NCBI GenBank assembly: GCA_032718475.1
Contig: JAUCBJ010004851.1
Location: 52,791-116,790 of the forward strand
Length of the DNA stretch: 64,000 nt
Reading direction: 5' to 3'
Source: Nemertoderma westbladi
Taxonomy: Eukaryota > Animalia > Xenacoelomorpha
The position numbers and the translations under genes are program-made. Positions 27,566-64,000 of the stretch are shown piece after piece. A model generated the notes under the pieces. It searched no databases. It worked only from the letters and a program-made list of their open reading frames with translations, and was not told where the DNA came from. The first letter of the stretch is position 1, and each line of letters begins with the position of its first letter.

Positions 27566-28552
27566 CACTGTAGGAATACCTTAGTTGGGGTATCCCAGTA
27601 ACGTGGTTACCGGGATATTCAGCCATGACCGGGAGAATTTTGATAAAATGGTAAGACAGTTTAAGGGATTGCAAATAACTACACACAATACCAAACAGGA
27701 TAATTTAAAATCGAAGATTTATTGTAAAATAAATCCCCATCCTATTGTAAAATTGTTTTATACTATAGAAAATTTATTAGTGAAAATTATTTATCCTATT
27801 GTAAAATTTTCATATTTTGGGGTTTTCTCTTTCATCTGATACAGAATTTAATGGATATTTCAAATACTGTAATACAGTAAAACGGCTTGGCGAGATCTTT
27901 TTTAAATCTGAGTTATCGCTGTCTTTCCGTTTACCAGTTTGTCCGTCAAAATTTAGAAAACAGGCAGACAAACCGTCACACAGACATACTATTGGATACC
28001 ACTAAGCACTAAACATTAAAGCCTCCGGAAATGAAATCACCGACCCCAAAAACCCACATATTGATAATTTTAGTGAGTTGGTACGATGCCATAGTGTCAA
28101 ACATTACTGACCGATTAACAGACGGTCAGGTTTGAGCGCGAAGGTTCAAACTTTAAAACAAATTAGAAAAAAATATCAGAATTACATTTTGCGTTTTTAA
28201 TTTTTTGAAGATATTGAAAGATTTTCCAGCACATTTTTGAAAAAATATTTTGCTCAAATATTTTTTACAACATAGATATTGACCTACAATGCGAAGTTAG
28301 AGCTGTTTAAAAAAAAATCTCATGAGGGGAACCCACCCCACCCCACCCCCCCCCCCCCCCCCCCCCACCTAAAATCAGCATCCCTGAAAACGTTAATAAC
28401 CTGGAAATCAATGTATTTATTTGATCAGTTACAAATATATTTCAGTACAAATACAACAATTTTGTTACCGGTAACTTTAAGATTTATGAACAGAATTGTA
28501 AGGGTTGTTTAGGCAGTCTTGCCGGCTGAATTCTGTATGACAGTAACCGCAC

Positions 28553-30571: not shown

Positions 30572-31907
30572 ATCTTCAATAAATATTAATCAATAAATTA
30601 AATACAGGTGGCAGTAGTTTGAGGTATGTCAAGCTCTTCACTAATATAAATTTCATGCGATGTAAATATAATAAATAGATGATATAAGGGCGTTCAAAAG
30701 TTGCATGTCGCTGTAACGGAAAGGAGCAGGTTATACAGTACCGCTTTCAAACAACGTCGCATTGGATCCTAGTAGGATCCAAGTCACTGATTCACTACTG
30801 TAGGAAAACTTTCAATACGTCAATATGCACTATCCGCCTAGAGTAGTAGTTTAAATTAGGGTTGAAACTGACAACCAAACGTATTATTTGGGAAATTCGC
30901 AGGACCGAGCGATGATGCAAAAACATACAACTTTAGAATGCCAACATCTCGGCAATTTCTTGATAGCATTCAAATGTTTTCACAGAGTTTAGAAATATTA
31001 CTCACCCACAGTAAAATAGAAGCAACACCCGGTTTCATTTTTATAAGAATTTTTTTCTACCAACATGTGACAGGGAAGAGGATACATTGAAACAGAGTCT
31101 GGGCTCCAGGGCCAAATTAGCGAAAGGTAATTAAAAGAGAAATATTATAATTATAAATATGTACCTATCTTAACATTTTTACATCGTCCAGCCGATCTCC
31201 TTACTCCAGGTATTGCTTGGTATATTTGCATTTTTCTATACGACAGTTCCTATGTAGCAAACTTCGCCTGCGTTTGAACTTAAGTAATTAACAGTAATTA
31301 ATTACCGGTACCTAATATTTAAACAAAAACTCAAGTTCGCGTAGCTGATTATGAAACTGTAACCTGTAAAGCCCGTCGCTACAGACATTGTCAATACTGC
31401 TAACTTTGAAGGTCGTTTTCACTTGGTTGCTATGGTATTTTCAAAAAACTAAATATGCCATTAAATTCTTCAAATCAAAAATAGTAATCTTCCATAAATT
31501 TTAACTCATCATATCTACAGATCATCTATAGGAGCTGTTGCTATGGCAGTTTCCCCTGTTGCAATGTTTAAGACTCTCTAAAAAACCAGCTCATCCGTTT
31601 GGTGAAGTCAACCCGATTTGTATATAATGTCCCATATCAGTATTAAACATCTATATGGGCTAGCTGAGTCGTATAAAAACACTTACGGGCCATAGGCTGG
31701 AGCCTGTATTACATATAGAAACACCTAGATTTATAAACATTGAGGCAGAAAACAATAGTTCGACATATTTTTTCCGACGAAAATACGAAATTAAACATTG
31801 TAATATTTCCGTTGCTATGTTAACCCAAGCGTGATGTTTAAATTTCAGAATAGATAACAATTCAACCAGTGAGTGTGTAGGAGTGTGGAATAATCCAACC
31901 GGTGTGG

Positions 31908-37900: not shown

Positions 37901-40181
37901 ATGGAATTTAATTATGTCTACCGCGGTAGACAATGCCGACATCCAGACACCTTATCCTGCTTCAACGTCATCCCAGGCATTGATCGATGAAGTATCCGTG
38001 TCCGGACTCACAACAAAGTGTGGCGGAACCACATCAAAAGTAGAAAAGCCAAGCGCAGTGGCGCAAATATTATCAAATCAGGAGTATATTAAAGAGAATC
38101 TTAGAGCCTTAACCCGGCTGATGAAGGCAGTTTTATGCCAATTGAAGACGGCTATTCCTATTAACGATGAGGAACTGCAGGATGCTTCCCCATGCACGTA
38201 TCTACCTTTATCATCATTAGATCAATTTCATGCTCTAGAAGCCAAGCTATGCGATCTCTCCTTCTTCAACCGAATGGTTCACGAAATCCAGTGCGTTGGT
38301 GGCCCCGACTCCATGGCCACAGTCCGTGCCGCAATGCGCCATTGCATTACCAATGATCTTGGGGCGCATTTTAATTGGATAGGATCAAATGGAAAGAAGG
38401 CATTTAGAGATACGAAGGTAATTAATATATAGTATTATCAAGCAATTTGTCATCAAATTTTATACTACTCCACTCCATTCCATAATTGTTTGAATTTTAT
38501 ATTTAATTTTTTAAATTTAATAAAATGTAATAAATTTAATTAAAATTTAATAAATTTTAATTTTTTTTTTTAATGTTTTAGAAAATATTATCTATTCATT
38601 TTAAAACAAATGATGTTCTAGAACAATAATTTTTGTTATAGAACATTTTATTACACCATTTTATTATTATTTTTTTTTTATTATTTTATTTATTATTTTT
38701 TTTAAACATACGGTTTATATTTCAACAATAAAATTTGCGTACGATATAAATAAATTAAAATTGTCACGAAAAGATTTTTAGAACAAAAAATATGTATTAT
38801 AGAACATTAATAAATTTAATTAATAATCCATTATTTTTAAAACGAAAAAAGCAAAAACTAAACAATTTTCGTTACCACCTTTTTGTTTCAAAATAATGTC
38901 CTAGTCAAAACGATACCCGGTAGGCCTACTTTAAAATAAAATGTGTTGGTTGTCAGAAATTTAGTGCATAGGGACATGAAATTCTTCATTCCTTCCATTA
39001 AATAATAATACACTTCGATTTTCGTAAAATGGTTCAATCTCGATAGAGTACTCGTCTCTAGAAATGAAATCATCCTATGTTCGAATTTTGAAAAACCTCG
39101 CACATTAATCTTAAAAGGTGTTAGGTTACACGCAAAGTTTTTTTACAGGGCAATAACCAGAGTAGAAAAAATTATTACTTATTATTTTTTCTTATGTGTT
39201 TAGATTTGCAAAGCAATTACAAAGGCAGTTATGCAGTCAGGTGGCGGTGCAGTACTTCACCACATTGAGGAAAAAATGAAGGATTGGCTAAAGCACTCGA
39301 CATCCAGGAAAATGGAAGGAGAAAGGAAGAGTGGACAGGGTCAGAATAAAGATAACTGAATAAGAATAATTTTACAAATTGCCTTTAAAGTTTAGTTTAG
39401 TTTAGTTAAGTTTAGTTTGAATGTTGGTTCTAAGGTTTTTGAGTTAGATATTGAATATAATTTGCCAACATCCCAGAGCTAAAAAACATATTGCATTAGT
39501 TGTCAAATACACTGTTGTGAGTAAATTACCTTTAAAGTTTAATGTTAAGTTAATTTTGAATATTTGTTGGTTATTGATGTTATTGGGAATATATTAATTT
39601 GCTTATCTATTATCAAACTCTATAAAGTGGGACAGTAATACAGTTTAAGATTTTGAGACACATGATAAACTAAGCTATGTGTATCTAGTCTGAGACTTCA
39701 AGCAGCACATGGATAACTAAGCTAACTGGTTATCTAGTTTAAGACTTCAAGCAGAATATGAATAAAATACAAATTCATTTTACAAATTGAGTTCATTGAC
39801 AGTGGAGCTCCGATACAAATGAACGCAACTATGATGTCTATTTAGTCGTACTATAACAATTTCTGAACCGAATTATATAATGTTTAAAAATAGTTCAAAT
39901 AAGTCGTTCAACAATGGGTGATAGCTACATAATTGAACGCACAAATATCCACCTTTTGCGTTTAAATTTAGTTCAGAGCAAAACAATTATACGTTTACTA
40001 ACGATTTTGCGACGTTCAAGGCAATTCCAATATTAACGTTCGTTTGATGGGTATTTTGGTGTTGCAAAATACGTGGAAAAACACGCCATTCATAAACGTG
40101 TACTGGACTTTAACTGAACCACGTTCAGAACGTGGTTTTAACGAATTTCAACGTGAAATAGACGTTATTGTGCTACTAGGG
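34921..40181 (+). mobile_element. 3' part of an EnSpm/CACTA-like transposon with a spliced DUF4806-type ORF2 remnant
   Basis: Exon-like pieces: 34922 (IVHF..SVDWAPSTWL..IFWPP), 35570-35763, about 37581-38417 (LPLSSLDQF..VGG..VRAAM..FNWIG..KKAF) and 39204-39359 (ICKAI..MKDWLKHS), the last joined by a phase-0 GT-AG intron. AACGT-rich subterminal region ending GTGCTACTAGGG. Confidence 0.7.
36219..36877 (-). mobile_element. 5'-truncated RLE-type (CRE-like) non-LTR retrotransposon
   Basis: CCHC knuckle CSRCG..DGLHGLSC followed by RH..LND, DGKRVDG, WDATV, ENSKIKKY and PVAFETF restriction-like endonuclease motifs. GC-rich island within an AT-rich intron. Confidence 0.85.
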
Positions 40182-40514
40182 TAGATCCCAGTTTATGCTA
40201 TTAAAAGCTTTTGGTAATCATCAAGCTCATCGCGAAGCGAAATTAGATCCCACGTTTAAAGCAAAGCGAACTTAGATCTTAGGTGAACTTAGATCCCAAT
40301 TTATACAAATAGAGGAGAAGCGAACTTAGATCCCATGTGTACTGTACGCTTAAAGTACAGTAGTTGCGATCCCGAGTGACTCACCAACCAACTACAATTT
40401 GCCAATTTATAGCTAAATTCGTTGCAATGTATTATTGTGGCTAAGTTCGCTTCCCTTGAAGCGCGTGATAATATTTACAGTAAGGTCTGCGGCTAGCCTA
40501 TGGGAATGACATTG

Positions 40515-41210
40515 CACTTCTAAGCTGATTTGTTAACTAGTCTGGGACTTCGAGTAGCACGTGAACAACTAAACTGACTGGTTAACAAGTCTGGTACTTC
40601 GAGCAACACTTGAACAACTATGCTGACTGGTTAACTGGTCTAGGACTTCGAGCAGCACGTGAACAAATAAACTGGCTGGTTACCTAGTCTGGGACTTCGA
40701 TCAGCAGGTGAACAACTAAACCAGCACGTTAACTAGTCTGGGGCTTCGAGCAGCACGTGAACAACTAAACTGACTGGTTAACTAGTCTGGGACTTCCAGT
40801 AGCACGTGAACAACTAAGCTGACTGGTTAACAAGTCCGGGACTTCGAGCAGCACTTGAACAACTAAGCTGACTGGTTAACAAGTCTGGGACTTCGAGAAA
40901 AATTGCAAATTGAGGAGGGGGGCGATGTACCAGACTAGTTAACCAGACATGTACACTAGTTAACCAGTCAGCTTAGTTGTTCACGTGCTACTCGAAGTCC
41001 CAGACTAGTTGACCACTCAGCTTAGTTGTTCACGTGCTGTTCGAATACCCAAACTTGTTAACCTGTCAGCTTAATTGTTCACGTGCTACTCGAAGTCCCA
41101 GACTAGTTAACCAGTCAGCTTAGTTGTTCACGTGCTACTCGAAGTCCCAGACTAGTTGACCACTCAGCTTAGTTTTTCACGTGCCGCTCGAAGCCCCAGA
41201 CTAGTTAACC
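40515..41210. repeat. 49-bp satellite in two oppositely oriented arrays
   Basis: Unit AACTAGTCTGGGACTTCGAGCAGCACGTGAACAACTAAGCTGACTGGTT. About 8 copies forward to about 40897, then about 5-6 reverse-complement copies from about 40930. Confidence 0.92.
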
Positions 41211-41503
41211 TTCTATCTCCCAGTGTTCCCAATTGGGAGCATTTTTATAAATTCAAGTGGAGGAAATTTAATATAGGCTTATATTACTTTTTTTAATGTT
41301 AATATTTTTAGGAAGAGTGGAATATTGTTTTTTATTTTCAACTTCAAGTGTTTTCAAACTTCAAGTTGGTCTTTTGGCATGCCAATTTTGCCAATTCTCA
41401 TTTTTTTTTTATTTTTGGAACATGCAAACAATAGTGGTCAAAAACGTTACAAATTTGATATTCCAAACCAGTGGCGACATTAAAATTAGACTTTTAAATA
41501 ATA

Positions 41504-44785: not shown

Positions 44786-45913
44786 ATGAATTCCAGAATA
44801 CCTAGATCAGAGGGGGTGTCATGCTGTCATATGGATACTGATGGAGGCGGAGGGTCTGACTCTTCCATGGCGACGAAAGAAGGTCGCGACCCCCTTATCC
44901 CTCACATCCAATGCCAATCCAGCCAATCATGTACTCCATCTATATCAATGTTAACGAAACACTTCCTTTCTATGAGGCCGTTGTCGGTAATATTTAAAGA
45001 AGTCATCAATATCCATAGCAACGGCGACGCATCGGCACAGGACACTATACTGAAACTAACGGTGGACCACCCAATAGCGAAGGAATTCCCACCCTCGAGA
45101 ACTTATCTTATAAACTTCCTCAAGTTTCTCATTAATAATGTTACCGAAGTTAGCGACATGGTGTATGAAAGATTCTCTCCGCTTATGGCTCAACCCGATT
45201 CGCAGACCAACTGCTTCCGGACTTACGTTTTACCCTGCGACTGCTGCGTGACTATTCGCGAGAACGTTGTCACCCTATCTGGGGGAACTACCGGTTTGGT
45301 TAGCTGGCCAGCGGGTTTCTCGCTGACGGAATGGTTGAGTGCACGACTCCATCTTACGGACGGTAAACGAATCCTAGAGTTGGGATGCGGCGCGGGTTTG
45401 TCCGGTATAATTACGTGTATGACGTCACTTCCTGCGGGGTACACGTTTACGGACGCGAGCGTAAACGTTCTGGACAATTTACGCGAGAATATTCGCATTA
45501 ACTGCCTCAACTCAAAGTCTTCTCATTGCAAACAGAATCATCAGCTTCAAAAGGATTACATTAGAGTGCAGCCCCTTGATTGGAGTTTGTCTAATTGCGA
45601 TCAAGCGGTTGACAGAGATGTATACGATATTATTGTCGCCGCTGATGTGACCTTTGACCCCGAGAGTCTACCAGGTCTAGTTAACCTACTCCATTATCTG
45701 TTATCAACCAGCAACTCAGCCAATCCATCTCGCTGCGCTTATATTTCTTGCACTATTAGAAATCCAACTACTCATACATTGTTTACTCAGTTGCTGGACA
45801 ACGCCGGTCTTATTACTGTTTACGAAAACATTGACAGACCCGAGTTGTTCTATTACGACAGGAATCAACAATTTGCTGTCCTTAACATAAAAATGAGCTT
45901 CCCTTTCAAATAA
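44786..45913 (+). CDS. EEF2KMT: Protein-lysine N-methyltransferase EEF2KMT/FAM86-like, intronless
   Basis: FAM86-like N-domain (HPIAKEFPPSRTYLINFLKFLI), GTTGLVSWPAG, SAM motif I ILELGCGAGLSG, FTD, LDW, IIVAADVTFDP, TIRNPTT, with AATAAA downstream. The true start may be a downstream Met. Confidence 0.88.
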   Translation: MNSRIPRSEGVSCCHMDTDGGGGSDSSMATKEGRDPLIPHIQCQSSQSCTPSISMLTKHFLSMRPLSVIFKEVINIHSNGDASAQDTILKLTVDHPIAKEFPPSRTYLINFLKFLINNVTEVSDMVYERFSPLMAQPDSQTNCFRTYVLPCDCCVTIRENVVTLSGGTTGLVSWPAGFSLTEWLSARLHLTDGKRILELGCGAGLSGIITCMTSLPAGYTFTDASVNVLDNLRENIRINCLNSKSSHCKQNHQLQKDYIRVQPLDWSLSNCDQAVDRDVYDIIVAADVTFDPESLPGLVNLLHYLLSTSNSANPSRCAYISCTIRNPTTHTLFTQLLDNAGLITVYENIDRPELFYYDRNQQFAVLNIKMSFPFK

Positions 45914-46365: not shown

Positions 46366-49300
46366 TTAACTACTACTACTAGGTCGAGCGAACTCGGACA
46401 GTGGAAATGAGATCCTTCCAGGCTTCCCGATTCTCCATAGTTGTCGCAATTTCGTTTCTCCCAAGTTCAGTATCCCTTTCAAGTTGATCTATATATGTTA
46501 CGGCCGGTCGTCCACGACTACGCTTTCCATGAGTTGGTTGCCAGAAAAGTAGATCTGGTATGACCTCGTCTTTACTTCGCCAGCAGTGCCCACTGAATCT
46601 TAATCTGCTTTCATGGAGGGTGGTTGATACAGGTGGTATTGTACCATAAAGCTCGGCATTTGTCATGTGTTGTCTCCAGTTGATGTTTAGGGCTGCCCTT
46701 AGTAGTCTTGTGTAGCAACCATCAATTCATTGTTCAAGTGATTTAGTCAGTGTCCAGGTCTCACCCCCGTATAAAAATACACTTTCCACTGTGGCTCGAA
46801 AGAACTTAGTCTTCAGGTGCCTGGAGAGATCTGATTTCCAGATGGTATTCATTTTTGATAGAGCTACCCAAGCCTTTGCTTTCCTAACTTCTATGTCCTT
46901 TTTGCTACTCTCTATCCATGATCCAAGGTACTGGAAGTCGTCAACCTTCCTTAGTTGATTATTGTCAATGGTTGTCAAGTTTCCATCACCATTAAAGGTC
47001 ATGGATTCGGTCTTGGTAGCATTTATATGCATTCCAACCTCCTTAGCAGCCCTCTTCACTTTATTTAGTAGAAGCTGTGCATCTGCTAGGGTATTAGAGA
47101 GCAGGGCGATGTCATCCGCAAAGTCGGTGTCTGTGACTGTAGTTTCCGGATATCTACTACTTCTGCGTTCTTGAAGTGTGAATGCCAGGTCTTCACCCTT
47201 TGTGGCTGTCCTCATTGCGTAATCCAGCACAATTACAAATAGTAATGGTAATAATGTGTCACCTTGCAGTACGCCAGCCAGGATTGAGAAAAAACCCAGT
47301 TTCATCATCTGGTGAGAGTACCTGCGCTTCTGTGTCACAATATAACAATCCAATGCCAGCAACAATTACTTCTGGTATTCCATAAGCTCTTAGGATTTCA
47401 AGCATTTTACCTCTATGGATGGAGTCGAATGCCTTCTTGAAGTCCACAAAAGTCATGACTGCGGGGAGATTCTTTGACTTAATTCCTTCAATCAGTCTCC
47501 GTAGTGCAAGTATCTGAGCTATTGTTGATCTACTTGGTCGAAATCCGTTTTGGCTCTTACGCAGTAGTTTCTCTATGTGAGGCCTAATCCTATATAGAAT
47601 CATTTTATTCTATATTTTGGCAGCTACCACAAGCAGACAGATCCCACGATAGTTTATTGGTATGCCGAGGTCTCCTTTCTTGGGGAGAGGCTTTAGTTGA
47701 CCTTTAGTCCAAATTGGTGGTGGCTTTTCCCCTTTTAACATCCGGTTGCAAACATTCAATAATGGTCTATTTAGCACTCCGGTTTTCCATACCTCCGCTG
47801 GGATTTCATCTAATCCACTCGCTTTATTATTGGACATGCTTTTAATGCTTCTTTGGAGTTCGGCAGGTGTGAAGTCCCCTGTTTCTACTGTATAGGTAGT
47901 GTCTTGTCATATATTTTCCTTGTAGGGCTGACCTCGATGTTTGGTGGCTGCCCAAGCAAGTTGCTGAAGTGAATTTTCCACTTCCCAACACGTTCTTCAG
48001 GACTATCGGCTTTGAGGCGCCCCTTTGCACAACTTTTCCGACCAGATACCTCATTTACAGTTTGCCAGGTAAGTCTTGATTGTTGCTGTATGTGAGCAGT
48101 TGTAATTGCTTCAGTTTTATCCTGTATGTACTTTTCCTGGCTGATGTTGTAGGCCAATTTAAGATCGTCCTTAGCTTTCTCAACCTTGTTAATGTTTTCG
48201 GTTGTTCGGTTTTAACTTTGTAGGCTATCTTAAGATCTTCTCTCTTACAAGTAACCTCAGAGTTTTGCCATGGCACATACTGTTTTCGTTTAGGTTTCTG
48301 GGGGATATGCCTCTTAGCTGATTACTTGTGGGCTGTTATTATATTCTGGTATATTGAATCGGTGGATTGGTCTTCATCCATTGACTGAAGTGCTTCAAAG
48401 CGGTTTTGAACTTCTACTGTATAAGCATCCTTTACAGCATTGTCAGTTCTGAGTTTCTCTCAGTCATAGTTGATTTGCTTGCTTGTCCTGGGTTTGCTGG
48501 ATCTCAAGCTGAGTCTGATCTCTGCAGTCACAATTCTGTGGTCCGAACCAATTAGGTTGAACGAGCTGTATGCCTCGCAGTTGATCATGCTATTTCTCCA
48601 CCTTTTGTTTATAAGGATGTAATCCAGTTGTGCTTTGGTTCCATTAGGGTATTGAAAGGTCCATAGCTTCCCCTTACTCGTGTTGTTTGTTGGTATCAAT
48701 TCACATTCTTCCATTAGGTTTAAAAGTAAGTACCCATTTCTGTTAGAACTGGTGTTGTAGGTGTAACCCTTGATGTCTTCTGGGCCAATTTGCGCATTCA
48801 GGTCACCAGCAATGACTTTAACATTGTATTTCGGGATGTCCTTAATAAGTCCAGTCAGTTCTTCATAAAACTTGACTGCTTGTTCTGGCTCTGATGCATT
48901 GGTTGGACTGTAGCAACATATAACTGTTGTCTTGGGATTCCCATCAAATGTTGCGATCATAACCCTGGAATTTATAGATTCGATGTTGTTTAGGGTCTTA
49001 AGTGCAAATGGGCTTAGCAGAATTCCTACTCCACCAATTGATGCATTGGCCGAGTTTCTTACTGCTGAGCTTGTTACTAACGTCCATCCATTTCCAATGT
49101 CATTGTACTTCATGGCAGTGTCTTCATGACAAATCCGATGTTCTTGGATGCAGATGATGTCGATGTTATATTCCATTGCCAGAGCAACCATGTCACCCTG
49201 TTTGCTGTGCTTTCAGCGTGCGTGCGTTCATTGTAGCAATCTTTAGTGTCTTTTTACATTTCAACAGGTTGGTTCTTCTTTCTTCTCTGTCTTCTGTTCC

Positions 49301-49907: not shown

Positions 49908-50222
49908 TTTAGGTGGTCGTTCACATGGTTCTCCCAACAAGAACTGAATAAATAATAGTTCATTAAAATTGCATTAAAATTTAACGCGGGAAGGTACTTT
50001 TTATTAATGAATATCTTGTATAATTTTCAATCCAGGCATATATTAATTATTTTCCTGTAATTCTATTGATGTGTGCCGCTTTCTGACGAAGTGGCATCTT
50101 GTTTAACCTGTCAATCACCCAGTTGGCGGGCTACTAACTACATTGCAAAGAAGGAAGGAAGAGTTGGTTGGCTTGGCTGGGTATATCAAGGCCTCTCTCT
50201 CTTTCTCCCTGGCCACTCCATT

Positions 50223-51430
50223 TGTAAAAGCTTTTGCTGAATTGCCCGGTTATTTTTCCTTATTTTTCCCGTAAAATACTCTGTAGTTGGTTTAATAGGC
50301 GTAAGAGGCCGTATTATTGCTGTATCGGTGTTTTTAGAGGATCTAAGAGCTATTTCTTCCGTATGTGTACTGTGGAAGGCATAGTTGATGATTCTATGGC
50401 AATTCCGTGACGCAAAAGGGGATAGCTACTCTTGAACAGTAGTTACTATGACGACGGTTAACAGCTGATATTCATACGTGTCGATTTTCTTTGTTCTACG
50501 GCATCTCTCAGTTCAGTCAACCAATCAGAGCGTTTTTACTGTTCTTGTACAGAAATTTCCTAGAAATCACGCAATGCTGTATGGGCTGTGTTATCATTCT
50601 GTCCTGAGCCAGGAAGAGCGGCTTTGGAATATTTTGTGCTTTTCTGCTTTAGCCTAACACTAGTAGGCTTAATTATAAGGACATATATCCGTTATCTCAA
50701 CTCACACTTAATATCACACTGGTTATCACTGGTTAACTGGCCCATACTGTGCAACTTAACTTAACATTACTGCTTTGCTGTCGGTTATTCATTATATTTG
50801 TTGATGAATTATTATATTTGGAATAACGAGAAATAACCCCGAAACCCAATATTCTTGATATACCGAAGGTAAGAGAGAAAGGTTACATATAACGATTGCG
50901 ACTTATGTTAAAGTGGTTTGAAGTGAATCTAATGTTATTTGATAGACCCTACATGAGTCGGTCTGTGTTCCTTTTATATGTGACTAAAATCAGTGAAGAT
51001 CGGCAGATTAGTGTGCAGTATTGTGCAGCATTGTGTATGAGTGAGACTGATAACGAAGCATTTCCTAAAGAATGCGCCATATATGTGAATTGTAACTAAG
51101 CCATATCGTTGTGAGTAGTTTAAGTCATAACTCTGTTTATATAGATAGAGCGCCACGTCCTAAAGGAACTGTTAATATTCCCCGAAGGTGAATAATATTG
51201 TCAGAGATTATATAATACTGTCAGTCGAATAATACATTAGGCTTACATAGCAATACGATTAAGCCCTCGAAGTCAATCTCCCGGGTATATCCAACGGGTG
51301 AATGATCGCGCACAGATTGGTTTCAACTAGTGTAGTGAATCAAATACTTGTTAGAGGCTAAAGCGATTTATTATCTAGAAGACATCCTAATTTGGCGGGT
51401 TAAACTGCCAAAGGTCTGAAAGCGCGAACA
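50223..51430 (+). repeat. 5' LTR of copy 2 (1208 bp)
   Basis: TGTAAAAGC...GCGCGAACA, bounded by the TSD. Confidence 0.95.
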
Positions 51431-51444
51431 ATAACGGATATATG
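51431..51444 (+). promoter_or_regulatory. Non-tRNA primer-binding position of copy 2, complementary to the LTR motif at 50682-50695
   Basis: ATAACGGATATATG follows the LTR CA directly and is the exact reverse complement of CATATATCCGTTAT (50682-50695, also 63037-63050). Confidence 0.8.
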
Positions 51445-53615
51445 CTTCTTTATTGCAGTAAGCAATAAAGTTGAAAGTACCGGTCAACCGGTAAACCTGA
51501 ACGGTACTTCTGTAGGTCCGTAGGCCCAACTGTCCTAACCGGTACTTCCCGTATAAGTACATTAGTATTATTCGATTTGATTATTGTATACCGGTAGGCT
51601 GTTTAAGAGATTAGGGACTGTACACCCCTTGTTTCTTTTGGAGCTTACTTATTTCTGTCAGTTTAATTTGTTTGTAGGCCAGTATTGAACAGAAGGCGTG
51701 TAAGCCTGATCATATTGTACAGACAATTTGTAGGCTGGGCTGTTGTCTGATTGCTGTTAAGTCTGAACGGATTGCAGTGTGTGTAGATCACCTGTCCGAT
51801 AAAGAATGGTTAGGAAGTAGGGGCAGCCAAAGCTGTAAGGTAAACCCCCAACTAAAGAATAAGTCTTACTACTGGGTTAGAACGCATACTACCTAATCAT
51901 TTCGGAGTCTGCATGTCCTGTAGTTTATTTAGGCTTGAGAGTAGTCTGCCATCGTTTAGTCTGTACTTTGTTTGTGTAGTCTGTACAGGTAGCGTATAAT
52001 ATTTATTTAGATAATTTGTAGGCTGGATAGTTGTCTGGCTGTTATTAGGTCTGAACGGATTGCAGTGTGTGTAGAGCCTCTGTCCGATAAAGAACGGTTA
52101 GGAAGTAGGGGCAGCCAAAGCTGTAAGGTAAACCCCCAACTAAAGAATAAGTCGTACTACTGGGTTAGAACGCATACTACCTAACCATTTCGGAGTCTAC
52201 ATGTCCTGTAGTTTATTTGGGCTTGATAGTAGTCTGTCAGTGTTTGGTCTGCATTTTGTTTGAGTGGTTTGTACGCGTAGCGTAATATTTATTATTCAGA
52301 GTTTATGCGACTATTCGCAACATTCATTCCCCAAGTTTGTTCCTACAATAATTGTGTTTGTTATACATACCGCTATAGTTAAATTAACCCCGGTACTACA
52401 CGGGCTGCTTGGCGTAGGTAAAGACTGGTGATTTTGTGCACCGGTCACTCCAGCAGATGCCGTGGTTCTTTTAGCTGTTCAAGTATATTTAACTACTGAT
52501 TATATGTTGTACAAGTACTCGTACCTAATTTAGGGTTTAGTGTACAGTGCTTTCCGAAAGTAATTAGTGTAGGCATTATATTTGTGTTGTAAAGTGGTTG
52601 ATAGGCACGTTCGATTAGCTCTATTAACTTCTAGGTAGGAACACTCCGTGATACATAACGTAGTACCTATAGCGATACGGCTATAGGTCGTCAGGCGGTG
52701 GTATTTTCCTATCTGGACAACGCAGTGTATTTACTACTACGTATTATTTTCAAATACCGCAGTACCCTGTCCGTTGTAATAACCAGATTCTAACCCTTTG
52801 TTAGGCTGGTTTGTAGACTTCTTGTAAAATTACCCTGAAAATTCGTATTTTGTGTTTTTGTAAATTTTTGTGTTTATTTAGAGATTGCAATCTCACCCGA
52901 ATTGTACGTAATTTGTAGTATTAAGTAACTTATGTAAATTAGCATTATTTGTTTTAGTGTCCTATAAGTAACACTTCACTGAAAGCGCACCGCTTTGTGT
53001 AGTGATTACTCCCCAGAAATAATAACATTTATTTCAAACATTGACAAAACCCATTAAAACGGGTATATATATATCTTATAAATCAAATCTAACGATTTAT
53101 AAATAGTAGGCCTATCATACAACTATTAGGTCTCAATATCAGTTGGACTACTGCTCAAATAGCGGTAATAAAGTAAGTAAAGTAACCAAGTAACCCTAAA
53201 GTTCAGAAATTCAATTATTTAAAATAATTGATATACCGGTATTTACGATAGGCCTATTATCTTTATTTCTATAAATTTCGGCTGAAATTATACCGGTACT
53301 TGTAATTAATTCTAGTCTAGAATTATATATACTACAAACTGTAAGCTGTATACCAGTATTCCCGATAGGCCTATTATATATTTATATATATTTGTACTAA
53401 AATTATACCGGTATTCTGTGATAAACCTAGTCTGTAATAATACTTATATAGTTATATATACTATAAAAGCATACCGGTATTCTAATATATTATATATATC
53501 ACGCTACACTGAGTAGCAGTATCGGTAATTAATTACTAGGCTAGCAGTTAATACTGAATTACTAGACTTGCTTAGACTGTAATATAGCAGTAGGCATTCA
53601 ACTGTACACATAAAC

Positions 53616-56600
53616 ATGTCTGATACTAAGCAGAACCTGTCAGACAGTTTATTAGATATAACTATCTGCGACTCAGATAGAGGCGTAGAACCGTCTAGTC
53701 GTAAGTTCAGTTCACCTCCCACTGTGAGGAAGGTCATCCCTCCTGTAGTAATAACAGAACCTAGGCTGGTCCAACATCGTAGGTCTATCATAGGCACTCG
53801 AGCTCAGGTCAAGCGGGACCAAGAAGCAGCGGAACAGCAACAACCCGTGAGCCAAGAAATTATTTCTCAGCGGCCCGACAGTTCCAGTAGTGAAGACACT
53901 GTAGAACTGACACCCGAGCGCGGAGCAAGGATGACGGATGCGGTTTATTCGGATCCCCTTCTCATCCTTCCTGCAGCCGTACTCACTAGGTTATTGATCG
54001 CTGTGGAAGAACACCAGATCGATTGGGCGAGAAGTAAGCGCTCAACTAAAGATAGTTATGAGGGATACACAAGGGAAGAACTGAAGTCCATGGTCGAGTC
54101 GCAATGGAACTTCCCCGGACCTGGACTCCCGTTTGATTTATCAGAAGCTGCCTGGGAAGACATACACCGGATGGGAGTAGCCAAGGAAACCATCGATCCA
54201 GCTGTGTGGAAGAGGTCCGCAGCCGGATACGCACAGGGATTCTTCAGCTCTATGGAGCGAGTAGAAAAACAACTGTTACAACAACCTCAAGGACCTCAAG
54301 AGCAGGGACAACTGCTTTATCAAGTTAGAGAAAGAATTCTGCGAATCAGCCGTAACGACTTGGTTTCAATGGGTGAGTCGCCAGGTTCAAGGAACAGCTC
54401 AGTGGAAAGCTCAGCTGGAGGAGCGCTCAACCCATGGAGAATCAACAGACGCTACTTTTTCCCAAGTGGAAAGTGAAGCGACGGCAGAGAAACCGCATAA
54501 GAGAGATGCCATTGACATCTATCTGTCAGACTATCAACGTTTTTTAGGTGATGACGAGTTGAGGAGAAGGTTAGATGGACTTAGCCCTAATAGCGAAGGA
54601 ACTCAGCGTGTGTTGGATGCCATCGATGTGGAAATGAGGGCTGCGAATCAGGCTAAATTTGATGAACAACTCCGCCTGACACGAGTCCAAGAAGAACAAG
54701 TAAAGAAAAAACGTATAGAAGACAGAAAGAAAGCAGCAGTGGTAGCTGCAGAAGCAGAAAGAAAAGCGGCAGCGGCAGAAGCAGCGGCAGAGGCAAAAGC
54801 GGCAGCGGCAGCGGCAGAAGCAAAAGCGGCCGAAGCTGAAAGAAAGGCGGCAGAGGCAGTGGCAGAAGCAGAACGGAGAGCGACTGAAGAAACCACCCAA
54901 TTATAATTGGAAAACATTCAGGAGAATCAAGACTGCATAAATAAACAGTTAACAGCTAGTAATATGCAGATGATGAATCGATCTACTCCCAAAAGACAGG
55001 GATATACATCATCTGAGGAAGGCGATACCACCGATACTGAAGGCAAAGGAAATAGATCTCGTCTAAGCAGACGTAGAAGAACATCCCACCGTCAGAAATT
55101 GCCTGATTTGCCTCCAGCTGTTAGAAGGCAACTAAATAACACCAACTTAGGTAGTACAGAGCCCACAGACCAAATAATTAAAATAGAAAGACTCCCTACT
55201 ATAGTAGATGAGCCTGAAATAATTAGGCCTGTTTTTGAAATCACCCCTTCGGTGATAGACACACCTGTGCTCCCTGAAGCTACCTCTAAATTCCCTCTGC
55301 ATAGCACTAAGCTACCTGTGCCCAGTAGAACTGCCCAGGAGACAGTTCAGGTCCTGGACCCCGAGCGAAATATTCATGATTTGTCGCCCGTTGTCCCGCG
55401 TCCGCCCGCTACAACGTTGGCGACTCCCGCTTCGGCGGTCGAATGGGTGGACGAGAGACGGCGGGGGATGGATCTCCTGCTCGGGCAGATGCAGGAGACT
55501 GTTCAGCAATTCAAGGGCACAGTAAGGGAAAGTAGGCTAGAGTTGCAAGAAGTGCAGCAAAGTATCGCGCTAGAACGCGATAAATTAGTAAATACACAAA
55601 GGGGTATACCACCACCCTCGGTAACAATGTGTCAACCTGTTAGGTCTGAAGTATCTCATGCGCAAGGTGTGGAGCCTACACGCATATATACTGCTAGCGA
55701 AGTAGAAACTCCTATAGTGAACCCTATTAAGGGTAATTATAGACCTGTTGATAATGACATTCCCTATAGACCTGATCATAATCCGAGAAATTTATATACC
55801 GATAACTCGATATTAAATAACACGATGGCCCAAGAAAGTTTTACGCGTCAAATGGCTAGAACCGAAGCCCGGCAAGCGGTGAAGGTGGGAGAGATCGTCA
55901 AGTTCAATGGAGATGAGATGAAATGGTTACCTTTTAATGAATATTACAAAGATAACATACAGAACTCTGTACTATCTAATGGAGAGAAACTTAGATTCCT
56001 CATCGAGTGCTTGGAAGGATCTCCCAAGTTAATGGCGTTAAAGTTTATTGGACATCCAGACGGATTAAGACAAGTTTGGGATACACTAAACATCAGGTAT
56101 GGTAATAGGAATAATATAGCTGGGTATTTGTATGCAAAGTTAGTAGCGCCCCGAAAGTTTATTAGCAGCGGGATTATAGAGTTTTCCGATGAGATTCAGG
56201 AGATCTGCAGACAATTAGATTGGCTAGGTAAGTCTCATGAGTATCAGAGTGCTATGGTTATTAGAGCAGTGGCTTCTACTTTACCGAAGGGTGGAGTAGG
56301 TACACGCTGGGATAAGAAAGTGTTATATATGATGGAACAACAACGACAAGACCCTACCATGGCTGATCTCATGTCATTCTTAGATGGAGAAGTGAAATTA
56401 CAGCTCCTAAGGCAGTCCAGAGAGAAGACACTGGAAAACAAGGTAAGTGAGAAACCCGTTTCTAGGAGAAGGGTAACACCAGTGTGTTATACAGACGACG
56501 GCGAAAGCCAGACTTCTCAAGGAGAGGATAGCGGGAAAGACACTGAAAGATCTTATGTCAATAAAACGCCTAAAGACCAGGTAAGTAAATTCAAGTCTCG

Positions 56601-58473
56601 AACCAATGACAGGAGAGAACAGGTAAGAAAAACTCCTCCTACGTCTCCCAAGAGAATTCAGGTGAGAAAGCCCAAGGAAAGAACGAACGTGCACCACACA
56701 GCACATGTTAAAGTAAGTAACATCAAGCCCAAATGTGTGCTGTGCGACGGGCCCCACCGTTTAAATGCGTGTGATAAATTCTTAAAGAAATCATTAAAAG
56801 AGAGACGGGAAGTCATGTGGGATAAGCGGTTGTGTTATAATTGCCTCAGACGAGGACACCAACGGCGAACCTGTTACTCCGACGCAAGGTGTGCAAAGTG
56901 CGGTGCGAAACATCATATCTTGTTGCACACTGAATTCGAGCGAAATAGTCCGAGTCAGGTGAGTGATTCCGAACTACATGTCCAATTCAGTGATGTGAAC
57001 GACACTGATCAATCTGAGATGGAAGGATTCTATACGGACGAATTCTCTGACCAAAACGAATCCTGTTACTTAATAAACACCACCGCAGTGTATCGAGCAC
57101 TCATGTATGAGAAAGACACAGACAGCGACCTCACCCTAACTACTTCAGATCAACAACAATCTTGGAAAGCGCCAACTTCAAATGTAGGAATCCGAGAATT
57201 TCCTGTAGTCCAGTTACGGGTCCACGGACCTCAGAAGAGCTATATAGTGAACGCCCTCCTGGACTCCGGCAGCACAGGAACATTCATCGATAAAGAACTA
57301 GCCGAAGACATCTTTGCTGGACAACCCAAGTTCCGAACCAAGCTAAACATGTCAGGGATCATGCAGGTTTGGAAATCTGCTGTGGCTGCCGACTATTATA
57401 TAGGTGAGTTGTCCACTCCACAGGATAAACTAGGAGAACACAGTATAAGGTCAGTCAAAATGGTGGCAATAAAGATCTTCGCTACCACCCAAGTGGAACC
57501 TTATAATTGGGACGAAGATGATCATGCCCAACAACTTAACATTCCTAGATTCGACACCGATTATCCTGGAGTACAAATATTAATCGGTCAAAACGCGCAT
57601 GAGGCGCTGGAGACATTGGAGAAACGACCTGCTCAACCGCAACCACTTCAGACCTATGCGGTAAGAACTAGAGTAGGTTGGTACCTTACTGGACCTTCCC
57701 GAAGAACGCTCAGAGAAAGACTGCTTCAAGATCGCGTCTGCCAGGTGAGTGAATGGGAAGATGATACTAGTGAGGGAGACGACCCAACTGAGGGAACACC
57801 ATACTCCTCAGATAATGACGATATTAGCTCCAATGTAGATCAATGGAGATATTGCCCCAAGAAGTTTAATCCAACTGACATCGCTTCCAGAGGAGCAACT
57901 CCTCAAGAACTGACAGATACTACAGACCGGTTAGGTGAACCCGACTTCCTGAGTAAGGAGGATGAATGGCCTCCCCATCTTACTCCGACTGAGATTAGAC
58001 CAGCCAAGGGAGCGGAGAAAGTCAAACCTAAAACCCGGACGGGTGGATCGGAGTTATTTGAACCCGGGATAGATCTGTCGGTATTACATATTGCCAGGGA
58101 CGACGCCGTGGATCTGGACCTCCCCACCGCGAGTGGATCCTTCATGAAGATCAGAGAGAGCGATTGGAGCTCTGGAACATCAGACGTCTCGCAGGGACTC
58201 TCACCTCTCCTGCAGGGAGCGACGGACCACTATAGCTCCTGGAATCGGCTTTGTAAGGCCGTCGTGTACCTAGAGCGATGTTTCTATCGTCACTATTCCA
58301 GGACGAAGAGGAAACCTGGAATTGTATTCGGGATGCAGCGACTCAATCACCCAGTCGGTCGTTTGTGTTTACCGGAAGGGAATGGAGGACTCTCCGGAAA
58401 CTGTGGAAGGCAAGATTCTCTTCCCACGACCACCTCCCTAATCCTTCAAACATCTAGGGACTCCATAACGTAA
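53616..58473 (+). pseudogene. gag-protease of copy 2, with RT/RNase H and integrase deleted
   Basis: One frameshift (about 54350) and one stop (54904), then a 1188-aa ORF with BEL gag, three Cys-His boxes (CVLCDGPH..C, CYNCLRRGH..C, CAKCGAKHHILLH) and ALLDSGS. Relative to copy 1 it jumps at about 57823 and about 58308. Confidence 0.92.
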
Positions 58474-60083
58474 CAACATATGGAGTGGGTGTGTGACTCT
58501 ATTATTTTGTATTTGTTTTATTTTTATATTTATGTATGTATTATTATGTAATTTTATTTTAATCGTTTTATTTAATTTTATTTAGTAGTGTGGTATTTTA
58601 GAGATTATTTAGTAGATTAGTGCAATATATATTCGCGTTTATTACTTAATTACGTATATATTATATTTAGTGCGACGGCAAGAAATAATTCTTTTCCTCC
58701 TTCCTTACTGTCCGTATTATATTATAAATACGTAACTACAGTAAGATGAAATGTCCGTACTTATTAAAGTACAATAAAGCCACTACTATATTTAAGTATT
58801 ATTGGTAGGCAGAGTATTAGGAATGCAAAGTTCAGATCCTCGTGTCTCGGCTAAACCAAGCTCTGGGTAGACCTTGGAAACGACTTGCCTCTTCACACTG
58901 ACATTGCTTCGTGCGATATTGCTCTCATACCGTATATTAAATAATACATATAGTAGCGTGATGTCCCTTTAACAGTAGCGTATAACGCAAAATAAATCTG
59001 TTAAACCCTTTGACCATCTGTAATTCTAGTCGATTAAGATATCGCGGCACCCACCGATATACTTGAAAGACAAATTCTAGAATCAGTGGTTAACGTCCCC
59101 AGACAAGTTCTGGAATAAATTGGTGCCCATCTCAAATATTAATTATTTAATATTTGCAAATCTAATAAATCAAAATCTGTAAAATTCAGATCCTTCAACA
59201 ATTCTAGTCAATTAAGATATCGTAGCATTTACCGATATTCTTAAAAAGACAATTTTCATAGAATTAAGGATCTTGTGTCCCCAGACATGTTATAGAATCA
59301 AAATATGTCAATTTAATTATCAAATAATAAAATTTCAGGGAATAAATTTAAATTCATGCCTTTTAATGAATTTAATAAATTGCCATTTTTACGCAATTTA
59401 TAACATTCCCAAAATTCCATTAATTAATAGATCAAGGGAGCGGAGATTTATCTTATTATGCGTATGAGTGTGCGAAAGTCTCCCAAACATAGTCAATAGC
59501 CGATAAAATTCATAAAGCCATGTATAAAACAGGACATTGACCATTAAAGAATTACTATTAAATAACATCCCAGATCTGTATGCATTGGAATTACCCTAAT
59601 TCTACCGCTAGCTTTGCATAATGTCACCATAGCAACAACCACGCTAGAATTAGAATTGAGTTAAAAGAACAATAGAAAGCTTGTCCCATTGAATAGCATA
59701 GGGAATAAATAGCGCACTGCTAGTATCCAAGGATACATGATAATAACGTGACATTCTGGAAGGCACTGACTAACGGACAAGTGACCCGAGTGTGTGTAAT
59801 TTGTGAGTTTATAGGCGAATGTTACTACTAAGGTGTGTTTACAGTAGCGAGTCGCAATTGTGAAAGTAACCCTAACTCTCCAGTAAGAACCTGAGGTGTA
59901 TCTAAGCCTTTGGGACGGACAGTCGAGTGACTTGTGCCGGTTGTCGTTGTCGTTGTGCGGCTACGTCGTTGGCGAAAGTACAGCGGCGACGACACATCTG
60001 CGCTGAGGATCTCGCACTGTCCGGGGGCTGATTGGGGTAGGCAGCGACGCTCGCTAGCCTAAATATAAACTCGTTATAATATT

Positions 60084-61147
60084 AACAAGCTGGCAAGCCT
60101 GGAGGGTTCACGGTCCTCCTACTTAATCAGTACAATAATAATACGTTTTCGTTCGGGTAGGCCTATGTTTCCTTTTCACTTGTTCCCATCGTAGGCGACC
60201 TCATGCTCATCCCACCACGACCACGACCACCAGTTACGAGTTGGGTAGGCGTCTACCGGCAACCGGTAAGTAATTACGCGCCACACGACGTCATCCCGCC
60301 ATCCGCCAACATTTATACCGGTACGGTAAGCCTACCACCTACCGGCTGGCTACCATCGCACCGTAGGTCTACCGCCTACGCCTACCGGTCAACCGGTAAC
60401 GGTAGGCTACCGCGTACCGGTACAGCGGTACTCAAAGTCGTACCGGTATTGTCGTAATTGACAAATGCAGGATTAAACCGTAACCCGTTCCGGTACCGGT
60501 ACCATATGCATCTGAACGACTGGACGGTTAATCTCATAGCATAGCTGCATAGGCCTACCGGTAGTCAGTGCGAAGTCGCCTGCGAACATGGCGAAATATT
60601 ATATTCACTGCTAGGGCTAGGCTAGGACCTACCAGCCTACTGCTGTACTGACCTATGACAGTATGAAGATAGGCAGATAGGCCTACAGTGGTCAGGTAGT
60701 ACCGGTCCGGTATGCCTACTACAGGCAGACAATCAGACAGTACTAGCAGTGCTAATTAATTACCTTAATTAAATCTTCAATTAGGTCATAATGTAGGTCC
60801 AAATTTAAAAATCGGCCTCCGTTAATCGATTTAGAAATAATTCAGGTACCTCCATGCCAAATATCAGAATCATTCATTGCGTTCCCTATGACAAGATAGC
60901 TTTTTCCTAAACCATGCGAAAACACGCAAATATAGCGCTCACATCGCACAAATACCATCTCGACACCCAATTTTTTGTATGAGCCTTCGCCATCCCTATA
61001 TCTAACTTTTGTCCAAATTTTGTTTCGATTGATTAATAAATAACTGAGATATCGCTCTGGACACACACACACACACACTAACACACACACACACACACAC
61101 ACACACATTACGGTAATAATGGTCACTTATGTCAAAGACCGTGAACC
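60084..61147. mobile_element. Helentron-associated (HINE/DINE-like) non-autonomous insertion
   Basis: Absent from copy 1. Subterminal GGTTCACGGTC (60105-60115) is inverted to terminal GACCGTGAACC (61137-61147), with a (CA)n microsatellite near the end and AT-rich flanks. Confidence 0.6.
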
Positions 61148-61169
61148 AATAAACTCATATATAGCAGAT

Positions 61170-62498
61170 ATGACGGAGTTGATAGAAGCTGGTCTTGGTA
61201 TCAGGGAGCGATATACTCTACTTTCAAGCGTTTGTTGATAGCTTGATACGCGGTGATACTAGTCCAACTACTACGAAGGATGATGGTCATTATATCGAAC
61301 CTACGATTTCCTGGAAGTAACTTACGCGTGAATTGGACTATGGAAAATTCACCGCTCGCTACACGCATTGTAATGGTATGTATATGGACTTCTTAACCAT
61401 TGGCCATTCTATCGATTTACACGATACGGACTATGTCGAACATATCCTACCCAGAGGAGTCGAAACGATAAACCAAAATTCTAATGCGAAAATCCTATTC
61501 GAAATCGACTCGAAAGAAAAGACATTAAAGAAACAAATAAACGCGGTAACTCCAACATATATTTGGAATTCTTGATAGAAGCATTGTAACAACAAATAAA
61601 TATCACCCGCGTTTCTCCTTCAAGACGTGCGTCTTTGGTATTATTACGATAAATGCCCTAGACCCAGCCAATAAACGGAAAGACATAAACATCCACGGAA
61701 ACGTTGTGTTAAACACAGTTGTGTTCGTTATATTTACTGGAGTTTCGAGCGAAACTTGTTTGACGTATCACCTATGCTCACTCGGCTCGAACGATCCTGG
61801 AGTAAACCTACGATCAGAGTCCCGGAATACTCGGTCAAACCTCCTCATTCCTTAGTTGGACCTCAGACCTGCGATCCTGGTGGTGTCGCGGATCCTCGCG
61901 GACTGTATTCACTGTTCAAAGATCTAGTGCTACCCTAACAATTAATCGGTAACACTCCGACAGTGATTTCTAGCTAGCCGCCCATCTTACCTAGCCGGAT
62001 TGTGACGCGGACACCTAATATCACTATCCAACCGTATGGTCGTCCCCGTTTAACGCGATACAACCCTTCATCAAGGTGAAGGAGAGCGTTGTACGAAACG
62101 AGTTAAACGCTATTCTATAAAGATCAAAAAAGAAATCTGCGTTTGTTCAGATAAACGTAAGTTATAACAGTAAGTCCAATCGATAAACGAATTAGCCTTA
62201 TCTCAGTTCGATTGGGAAATCTCGAATCTCTAAGAAGATATCAAGCTTAGAAAACCCTATTCTCTGTGAGAGTTTTGGACGAACGTATCCCATGACAAGC
62301 GGAGGAAAATCAGCTCGAGGAGAAGCATATCGAACTGGACGAGACACCGACCGTAAACCCAAACCTTCTAATGCAATTGTATTGCACCCTTTACCCAGGA
62401 GTTATAGCCTTCCTAGTAAAGTGGCTCGCCCCAAAGAGAAAAGGACTCTGGCTAGCCTCGGGAAACTGCGTAAACGCCGTCCGCGCAAAGAAAACTAA
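61170..62498 (+). pseudogene. Heavily decayed and deleted ORF2 of copy 2 (exonuclease and knuckles missing)
   Basis: Homologous to 12135-10760 and then directly to 8050-7891 of copy 1 (KFTARYTH, FDVSP, KPSNAIVLHP..KLRKRR). Confidence 0.85.
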
Positions 62499-62576
62499 CT
62501 GTTTAGAGTATCTTTATGTTTTAGAAACTGTGATTTTTATATTTTATAGACTGAAAATCCCATTTTCTGGGAGCGG

Positions 62577-63764
62577 TGTAAAAGCTTTTGCTGAATTGCC
62601 CGGTTATTTTTCCTTATTTTTCCCGTAAAATACTCTGTAGTTGGTTTAATAGGCGTAAGAGGCCGTATTATTGCTGTATCGGTGTTTTTAGAGGATCTAA
62701 GAGCTATTTCTTCCGTATGTGTACTGTGGAAGGCATAGTTGATGATTCTATGGCAATTCCGTGACGCAAAAGGGGATAGCTACTCTTGAACAGTAGTTAC
62801 TATGACGACGGTTAACAGCTGATATTCATACGTGTCGACTTTCTTTGTTCTACGGCATCTCTCAGTTCAGTCAACCAATCAGAGCGTTTTTACTGTTCTT
62901 GTACAGAAATTTCCTAGAAATCACGCAATGCTGTATGGGCAGTGTTTACATTCTGTCCTGAGCCAGGAGAGAGCGGCTTTGGAATATTTTGTGCTTTTCT
63001 GCTTTAGCCTAACACTAGTAGGCTTAATTATAAGGACATATATCCGTTATCACTGGTTATCACTGGTTAACTGGCCCATACTGTGCAACTTAACTTAACA
63101 TTACTGCTTTGCTGTCGGTTATTCATTATATTTGTTGATGAATTATTATATTTGGGATAACGAGAAATAACCCCGAAACCCAATATTCTTGATATACCGA
63201 AGGTAAGAGAGAAAGGTTACATATAACGATTGCGACTTATGTTAAAGTGGTTTGAAGTGAATCTAATGTTATTTGATAGACCCTACATGAGTCGGTCTGT
63301 GTTCCTTTTATATGTGACTAAAATCAGTGAAGATCGGCAGATTAGTGTGCAGTATTGTGCAGCATTGTGTATGAGTGAGACTGATAACGAAGCATTTCCT
63401 AAAGAATGCGCCATATATGTGAATTGTAACTAAGCCATATCGTTGTGAGTAGTTTAAGTCATAACTCTGTTTATATAGATAGAGCGCCACGTCCTAAAGG
63501 AACTGTTAATATTCCCCGAAGGTGAATAATATTGTCAGAGATTATATAATACTGTCAGTCGAATAATACATTAGGCTTACATAGCAATACGATTAAGCCC
63601 TCGAAGTCAATCTCCCGGGTATATCCTACGGGTGAATGATCGCGCACAGATTGGTTTCAACTAGTGTAGTGAATCAAATACTTGTTAGAGGCTAAAGCGA
63701 TTTATTATCTAGAAGACATCCTAATTTGGCGGGTTAAACTGCCAAAGGTCTGAAAGCGCGAACA
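62577..63764 (+). repeat. 3' LTR of copy 2 (1188 bp)
   Basis: Follows GGGAGCGG, ends GCGCGAACA before the CCATT TSD, and differs from the 5' LTR by an indel of about 20 bp and a few substitutions. Confidence 0.95.
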
Positions 63765-64000
63765 CCATTGTATTCACATTACATTGATAGATTGGTCTGT
63801 GTAAGTGCCGCTCAACTAGTTGGAGTGCTCTGGTGTAATGGTTCTCTACGTGGGTGTATCTCTAGGTAGACGTCAGCATTGAAGGCTTCAAGTCTCCCTC
63901 ACATTCAGGCGTCATGTCTCCCCACATGGGTTTTTTTGATATTAATTGATATAATTTCAAAATGGCTGAACCAAAACTGGAAAACAATATATGGCAGTAT

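Follow-up and report, generated by a model that had tools for sequence, protein, structure and literature searches.

A candidate self-priming system with a co-varying internal RNA partner in a BEL/Pao retrotransposon

How does a BEL/Pao retrotransposon start reverse transcription when the sequence directly behind its LTR offers no tRNA primer site? The question is raised by two related LTR elements in the window, i.e., the whole 64-kb stretch of DNA that was analysed: copy 2 on the forward strand and copy 1 on the reverse strand. BEL/Pao is the third large LTR superfamily. Its replication has been described as poorly understood (PMC8742986).

Anatomy and family assignment of the two elements

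The following parts were recognised in the two copies.

50223-63764 (+): copy 2, whole element; its TG..CA LTRs measure 1208 (5') and 1188 (3') bases
50223-51430 (+): 5' LTR of copy 2, 1208 bases, TG..CA
62577-63764 (+): 3' LTR of copy 2; motif and both arms (see below) kept, the 21 bases right after the motif absent
50218-50222 (left) and 63765-63769 (right) (+): target site duplication of copy 2, CCATT, 5 bp, on both flanks
62569-62576 (+): short purine-rich tract of copy 2, abutting the 3' LTR
53583-58473 (+): gag and protease of copy 2 with DUF1759, three zinc knuckles and DSG
26071-27157 (-): 5' LTR of copy 1, 1087 bases
13914-24384 (-): broken gag-pol of copy 1 with gag, protease, reverse transcriptase (YMDD), RNase H (Peptidase_A17) and integrase (H2C2, DUF5641)
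7891-11605 (-): broken extra reading frame of copy 1 after the integrase, with Cys/His clusters
5054-7812 (-): downstream LTR of copy 1, split by a 1.66-kb insertion, then the primer site again and 316 bases of leader

The initial annotation had considered the LTR end as fixed by the target site duplication. This holds for copy 2, where CCATT is present on both sides; in copy 1 the LTR start is set by two empty-site paralogs, and the LTR end rests on homology to copy 2, the downstream LTR running into the same primer site again. The LTR pair of copy 2 differs by six substitutions, a 1-base indel and a 21-base indel in 1209 columns; this near identity indicates a recent insertion. Between the two subfamilies the aligned LTRs have 67% identity over 964 columns. 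Copy 2 is without reverse transcriptase, most of the RNase H and the integrase core, thus it was probably mobilised by a helper; most of the extra frame is lost as well.

The assignment to BEL/Pao, also made in the initial annotation, was borne out by the proteins. A domain search revealed Peptidase_A17 (6e-29), DUF5641 and Integrase_H2C2 in Pol of copy 1 and DUF1759 in gag. For the reverse transcriptase/RNase H frame of copy 1, 69 protein matches were obtained with best identities of 43-44%, and PF05380 was present in 69/69; the named proteins among them were from sea anemones, abalone, barnacle, fish and insects, which makes an animal host likely. The Pol order protease, reverse transcriptase, RNase H and integrase with Pao-type domains is that of BEL/Pao. 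A gag with three zinc knuckles is a BEL/Pao trait, and three Cys/His arrays were found in the gag frame of copy 2 (aligned to P0005). The TG..CA LTRs, the short target duplication (copy 2 only) and the purine tract agree with the family description, whereas the 18-base tRNA-Arg/Gly site described for BEL/Pao is absent: no TGG-starting site follows the LTR, as noted initially, and the first 8 bases after it contain no TGG in either copy. The chromovirus Pol of Ty3/gypsy, which characterises the Tf1/sushi group, was not found; Pao-type domains are present instead. Classified by its proteins, the element is a member of BEL/Pao that departs from the family in the primer-site trait, on which the phylogeny of the family does not rest.

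Further copies were sought by a pattern scan, which yielded none in genome contigs and viral contigs and a single locus in metagenome contigs, a chance bacterial match without similarity to the window. A protein-based scan of viral contigs and genome contigs detected no related loci.

For the part 9439-10248 of the extra frame of copy 1, no homologue was present among 1.84 billion representatives. Judged by eye, the frame 9436-10248 resembles a DEDDy exonuclease in its motifs; it had no Pfam, PDB or database match, and its structure model (pLDDT 35.6) had no fold match. A function as DEDDy-type primer-trimming enzyme is possible. Extra genes for DEDDy exonucleases have been reported in rotifer LTR elements (PMC5408684).

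Several neighbouring features were observed. The insertion in the downstream LTR of copy 1 (5161-6829, 1.66 kb) has terminal inverted repeats starting with CAGTG and an 8-base target duplication, and in these traits it is like the non-autonomous elements of the hAT family. A FAM86/EEF2KMT-like methyltransferase frame without introns occurs three times (44786-45913 (+), 27158-27921 and 3735-4740): one carries the insertion of copy 1, and at the other two the site is empty. A search with this frame at E<=1e-40 gave no match. The window also contains a C2H2 zinc-finger array with repeats of 84 bases in one frame of 678 codons (28553-30589 (-)), a broken LINE with endonuclease, reverse transcriptase and DUF6451 (46727-49212 (-)), two 49-base-repeat arrays that lie face to face as a long imperfect inverted repeat (40483-41260), and a frame with DUF4806 and 48-base repeats (37581-38432 (+)). 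In copy 2, a 9-bp hairpin in the 2.2-kb leader (52665-52688 (+)) and a 7-bp hairpin at 53662-53680 (+) have three and two compensatory changes between the copies, respectively.

The LTR motif and its two partners

The position at which a primer should bind was compared with the LTR of the same element.

51431-51444 (+): primer-binding position of copy 2, abutting the LTR; complementary to the motif and free of a TGG of the tRNA type
50682-50696 (+): candidate self-primer motif of copy 2; 50682-50695 pairs with the primer site (core 50685-50695), 50682-50688 and 50690-50696 pair with the internal arms
26060-26070 (-): primer-binding position of copy 1, repeated at 5053-5043
26800-26814 (-): motif of copy 1, core 26811-26801
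51448-51470 (+): hairpin of 9 bp that follows the primer site, with the same stem in the two subfamilies and a variable loop; its 3' arm contains AATAAA; no covariation

The pairing described in the initial annotation was reproduced in both copies: 51431-51444 is the exact reverse complement of 50682-50695, and 26070-26060 is the exact complement of 26811-26801 at the homologous LTR position. The primer geometry claimed there was found as well, the 3' base of the motif facing the first base after the LTR in both subfamilies. In both copies the end of the motif lies at a distance of 22 bases from the first T in a TATAAG; the LTR end is 735 (copy 2) or 730 (copy 1) bases further on. Self-priming has been predicted from a complementarity of at least 10 bases to the own 5' LTR, 0-5 bases after the LTR (methods of PMC6317226); here the matches comprise 14 and 11 bases. 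A match of at least 14 bases was reached in 0 of 10000 dinucleotide shuffles of the LTR for copy 2. For copy 1, 13 of 10000 shuffles reached 11 bases, and 49 of 10000 if the match was allowed to start 0-5 bases after the LTR.

The 11-mer cores differ between the subfamilies at four positions, and all four differences are mirrored in the primer site, again as first noted. The chance of an exact compensated partner is about 4e-5, given the substitution spectrum of the two LTRs. A shuffle control reached the covariation of the primer duplex in 33 of 500 cases, a high floor with two rows; all compensation was lost once the partner was slid by 1-3 columns. The duplex is fully Watson-Crick in 22/22 cells, free of G-U pairs, and weak in copy 1 (-7.9 kcal/mol). 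An extension of the duplex over TATAAG was dropped, being out of register between the copies. The window contains no tRNA gene, thus no element-encoded tRNA primer there. Rfam gave no match at E<=1 for 50100-53700, and for 25800-27200 five matches at E 3.6-7.8, all far below the gathering score.

Within the LTR, a second partner of the motif was found.

51049-51055 (+): internal arm 1, pairs with 50690-50696, three compensatory changes
51079-51085 (+): internal arm 2, pairs with 50682-50688, two compensatory changes
51058-51075 (+): hairpin enclosed by the two arms, nearly invariant, and predicted to be helix three of the junction; pairing of its loop with 51446-51452 is possible as well
26395-26431 (-): arms and hairpin of copy 1 (arms 26431-26425 and 26401-26395)

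The arms were obtained in a scan for all shared Watson-Crick helices of at least 7 bp at aligned columns, run over the LTR plus the 100 bases that follow. Five such helices are shared by both copies, and three of them involve the motif: the primer duplex, arm 1 and arm 2. C50689 is the sole motif base that the arms leave unpaired; in the primer duplex of either copy its partner is the central G of the primer site. Read from the aligned sequences, the arms are a look-alike of the primer site, split by a hairpin; the 23-base segment between them has two differences between the copies and folds as a hairpin. All five variable pairs of the arms are compensated and none is broken; the compensated pair at 50683 falls outside the primer duplex of copy 1. 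A shuffle control, again with two rows, reached the arm covariation in 14 of 500 cases, and both arms together were reached in 0 of 5000 column shuffles. The split match was compared with 5000 shuffles of each single sequence; for the four LTR copies it was reached in 0, 3, 2 and 5 of them. As control, four further homologous stretches with 5512 columns in all were scanned and contained 41 shared helices of at least 7 bp; three of these were compensated, 3/3 being local hairpins, and long-range compensated helices numbered zero.

A three-way junction was present in the minimum-energy and centroid folds of each copy folded alone and is predicted to form the base of a domain some 400 bases long. 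Fold z-scores for the sense versus the antisense strand were -2.68 vs -0.17 and -1.58 vs -1.29, the sense strand being more stable. The hairpin loop may dock beside the primer site (-4.3 and -4.4 kcal/mol). The junction had not been predicted beforehand; it emerged when all column pairs were scanned, and its basis is two subfamilies. The internal arms lie beyond renewal by primer copying, thus their covariation is a sign that the RNA fold is under selection. A hammerhead ribozyme was considered on account of the unpaired C between the arms and was rejected, since inspection by eye showed no core of this type and Rfam gave no match. The most conserved block of the LTR (51123-51212 (+), 92% between the copies) coincides with a peak in contig depth and holds a second copy of the hairpin-loop heptamer.

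Contigs of four out of seven public runs (X1, X3, X4, X6) were aligned to copy 2, depth not being equal to copy number. The family is abundant and diverse in the four runs. Among 40 of the 152 rows, 51431 is T in 53%, 34%, 0% and 74% of the depth in X1, X3, X4 and X6, and 51435 is A in 50%, 49% and 74% of the depth in X1, X3 and X6 (X4 uncovered). This variant site is absent from both copies in the window; its A at 51435 predicts T at 50691 in the motif. In three contigs (two of X3, one of X4) the alignment ends at 50694 and the following letter is A, as T at 51431 would predict; these contigs are not linked to a primer site. A group of 26 loose-end contigs of X1 has C in place of 51084, which predicts G at 50683. 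From 50694-50697 to 50698-50701 the alignable depth drops from 135155 to 2544 in X1, from 82055 to 711 in X3, from 640 to 0 in X4 and from 8.5 to 0 in X6, and the loose contig ends past 50697 are unrelated C/A-rich sequences. This drop indicates that the constraint ends where the motif and the arm-1 helix end.

Competing predicted folds and possible routes of priming

The junction and the primer duplex are predicted to be mutually exclusive. With the primer site present, the primer duplex of copy 2 had a probability of at least 0.5 in nine of ten start/end settings; that of copy 1 reached this value in none of ten (highest 0.33), the junction winning, with arm 1 at 0.7 or more in 20/20 settings. 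Forced folds favoured the primer duplex by 16 kcal/mol in copy 2 and the junction by 4 kcal/mol in copy 1, long-range fold predictions being rough. In the absence of the primer site, the junction formed in 7 of 10 settings for copy 2 and in 10 of 10 for copy 1 (arm 1). The result for copy 1 speaks against a Tf1-like mechanism in which the RNA simply loops back spontaneously.

The self-priming system proposed initially remains the best reading, although not as a simple copy of Tf1, since a second co-varying LTR partner competes with the primer site. Its probability is about 0.67, two versions taken together. In the first version, for which we see roughly even odds, motif RNA from the 5' (R) copy primes the minus strand and switches between the primer site and the co-varying junction. 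Transcription would start at or upstream of the motif, and the junction would hold the motif until a rearrangement, e.g., in the particle, passes it to the primer site. The 3'-OH would come from cleavage or trimming directly behind the motif (after 50695), by analogy with the RNase H step of Tf1. Plus-strand synthesis would copy the primer, so that the primer site is renewed in each cycle and the match is kept. Integration requires a DNA end at CA, which leaves no room for another primer and supports self-priming. Against the version with the 5' copy have to be set the match lengths of 14 and 11 bases, a difference that a fixed-length copied primer does not predict. With two linked subfamilies only, each compensation counts as one event.

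Candidate control elements of the transcript bear on the choice between the versions.

50521-50531 (+): CCAAT-box-like block, identical in both subfamilies; putative promoter element
50674-50679 (+): TATAAG, kept in 4/4 LTR copies; candidate TATA box or part of the RNA module
50869-50875 (+): splice-donor-like site between motif and arms, conserved in both subfamilies, with 8/9 and 7/9 consensus letters
51645-51661 (+): first conserved splice-acceptor-like site after the LTR, in both subfamilies

A second conserved donor-like site is located at 51188, and 17 ATGs lie between the motif and the gag start. Splicing of the leader is plausible. On this basis a splicing-gated self-priming in trans may be imagined, a variant that we hold to be rather doubtful. 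Unspliced genomic RNA would keep its motif locked by the arms, so that the template retains its 5' end; splicing from the 50869 donor to an acceptor beyond the primer site would cut out the lock together with the site, leaving a spliced RNA that could supply a free primer to the unspliced genome. Such gating would explain why the duplex of copy 1 loses to the junction. Freeing the 11-mer was cheaper in RNA ending at the donor than in RNA with the arms in 10/10 settings (0.5-3.9 vs 1.5-10.2 kcal/mol), a comparison made without length control, shorter RNAs opening more easily in general. One contig of X6, a run that is only guessed to be RNA, crosses the 50869 donor unspliced, its aligned stretch ending before any acceptor.

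The pairings could also serve an RNA switch that controls translation versus packaging, splicing or dimer formation, with priming by a protein or an unrecognised RNA. The covariation of the junction is no weaker than that of the primer duplex, and copy 1 folds preferentially into the junction; unexplained priming occurs in other LTR elements without a tRNA site, GalEa (PMC5445492) and Skipper (PMC5006619). Against it stand the start of the duplex exactly at the first base after the LTR in both subfamilies, the position required for the primer 3' end, and its full Watson-Crick pairing without a G-U pair in 22/22 cells. We regard this explanation as unlikely.

The second version of self-priming, with the motif of the 3' LTR as primer, is unlikely too. 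It depends on the transcription start. A TATA box usually lies about 30 bases from the start, and TATAAG begins 11 bases before the motif core. If TATAAG is the TATA box, the start is expected near 50704 and the motif belongs to U3, thus it is present only at the RNA 3' end; the 5' end of the RNA then lacks the motif, which speaks against the version with the 5' copy. With a start at or before 50682 the motif belongs to R. In the 3'-LTR version the motif would be held by the junction until the primer site captures it and circularises the RNA; a cut would then prime, and a second RNA of the dimer would be needed for strand transfer. TATAAG and the CCAAT block are conserved, both 5' LTRs have an initiator-like pyrimidine-A at a distance of 31 bases from the first T of TATAAG, and the junction, which covers positions 9-23 of the motif, forms without the primer site in the settings given above; the docking of the hairpin loop beside the primer site fits as well. 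However, the region after 50697, including the initiator and the surroundings of 50704, is unconserved and is deleted in one LTR, the 3' LTR of copy 2. An R of at least 380 bases would be needed, and the LTR has no conserved poly(A) hexamer, the sole shared AATAAA being located in the hairpin after the primer site. A cut at the motif would in addition part R from U3 on that molecule.

Priming by a host RNA, a tRNA fragment or a small RNA which the LTR motif mimics in order to shield the site, is improbable. Priming by tRNA is the rule described for the family (PMC8742986), and half-tRNA primers are known in Ty1/copia (PMC6317226). This explanation requires, however, a separate host RNA for each subfamily, each identical to the motif of that subfamily, and the contigs show at least one further variant of the site; Rfam had no match of note near either LTR, a scan that is blind to 11-base matches. 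Chance, or a functionless DNA-level template switch that copied an inverted stretch, is very improbable: the motifs are AT-rich and the junction came from a scan over all column pairs, but the shuffle controls, the lack of long-range compensated helices in the control stretches, the same register in two subfamilies and the joint change of three partners stand against it.

Comparison with known systems

Self-priming is established for Tf1, the primer being the first 11 bases of its own RNA, cut by RNase H (PMC7175516, PMC4600332, PMC5341516). It has been predicted for the Tf1/sushi and Tcn1 groups of Ty3/gypsy and for the TAR lineage of Ty1/copia (PMC6317226). The occurrence in TAR, outside Ty3/gypsy, implies several origins of the trait. 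The members of Belpaoviridae are described with an 18-base site for host tRNA-Arg or tRNA-Gly (PMC8742986). In the accessible text of the main BEL/Pao survey (PMC3118150) the terms primer, PBS and tRNA are absent, in that of the Sinbad paper (PMC554778) the terms PBS and tRNA. No report of self-priming or of a decoy junction in BEL/Pao was found in the literature searched, mostly open-access main texts, and an earlier description is possible.

A tRNA-free BEL/Pao family, if confirmed, would represent a further origin of self-priming, and it would presumably escape host control via tRNA supply or tRNA fragments. The co-varying lock points to an RNA switch, with the primer itself at its centre, as the regulator of the start of reverse transcription. 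The lock model yields exact predictions that can be tested on start sites, on splicing and on the primer attached to strong-stop cDNA.

The element shares with the Belpaoviridae, as defined by the ICTV, the domain content and order, the LTR ends, the LTR size range, the purine tract and an extra 3' reading frame, and differs in the missing tRNA-Arg/Gly site (PMC8742986). The fungal GalEa elements with their Conserved Hairpin Site likewise lack a tRNA site and carry a conserved hairpin of 9 bp close behind the 5' LTR; there the hairpin starts at the LTR end and an LTR complement is missing, whereas here the hairpin follows the LTR-complementary site (PMC5445492). The TAR lineage of plant Ty1/copia (Houba, Osr-1) resembles the present element in that self-priming was predicted from the complementarity of LTR and primer site; it belongs to another superfamily in another host kingdom, and the accessible text mentions no internal decoy (PMC6317226). 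Closest in the primer site are Tf1/Tf2 of Schizosaccharomyces pombe, Tj1, Tf1/sushi and Tcn1, where the site after the LTR complements about 11 bases of the own LTR and a tRNA site is missing as well. The Tf1/sushi and Tcn1 groups are Ty3/gypsy, in contrast to the BEL/Pao Pol found here; the element thus likely works like Tf1-type self-priming, yet outside the Tf1/sushi group. To the Tf1-type scheme the co-varying internal lock, as deduced from the two subfamilies, is an addition.
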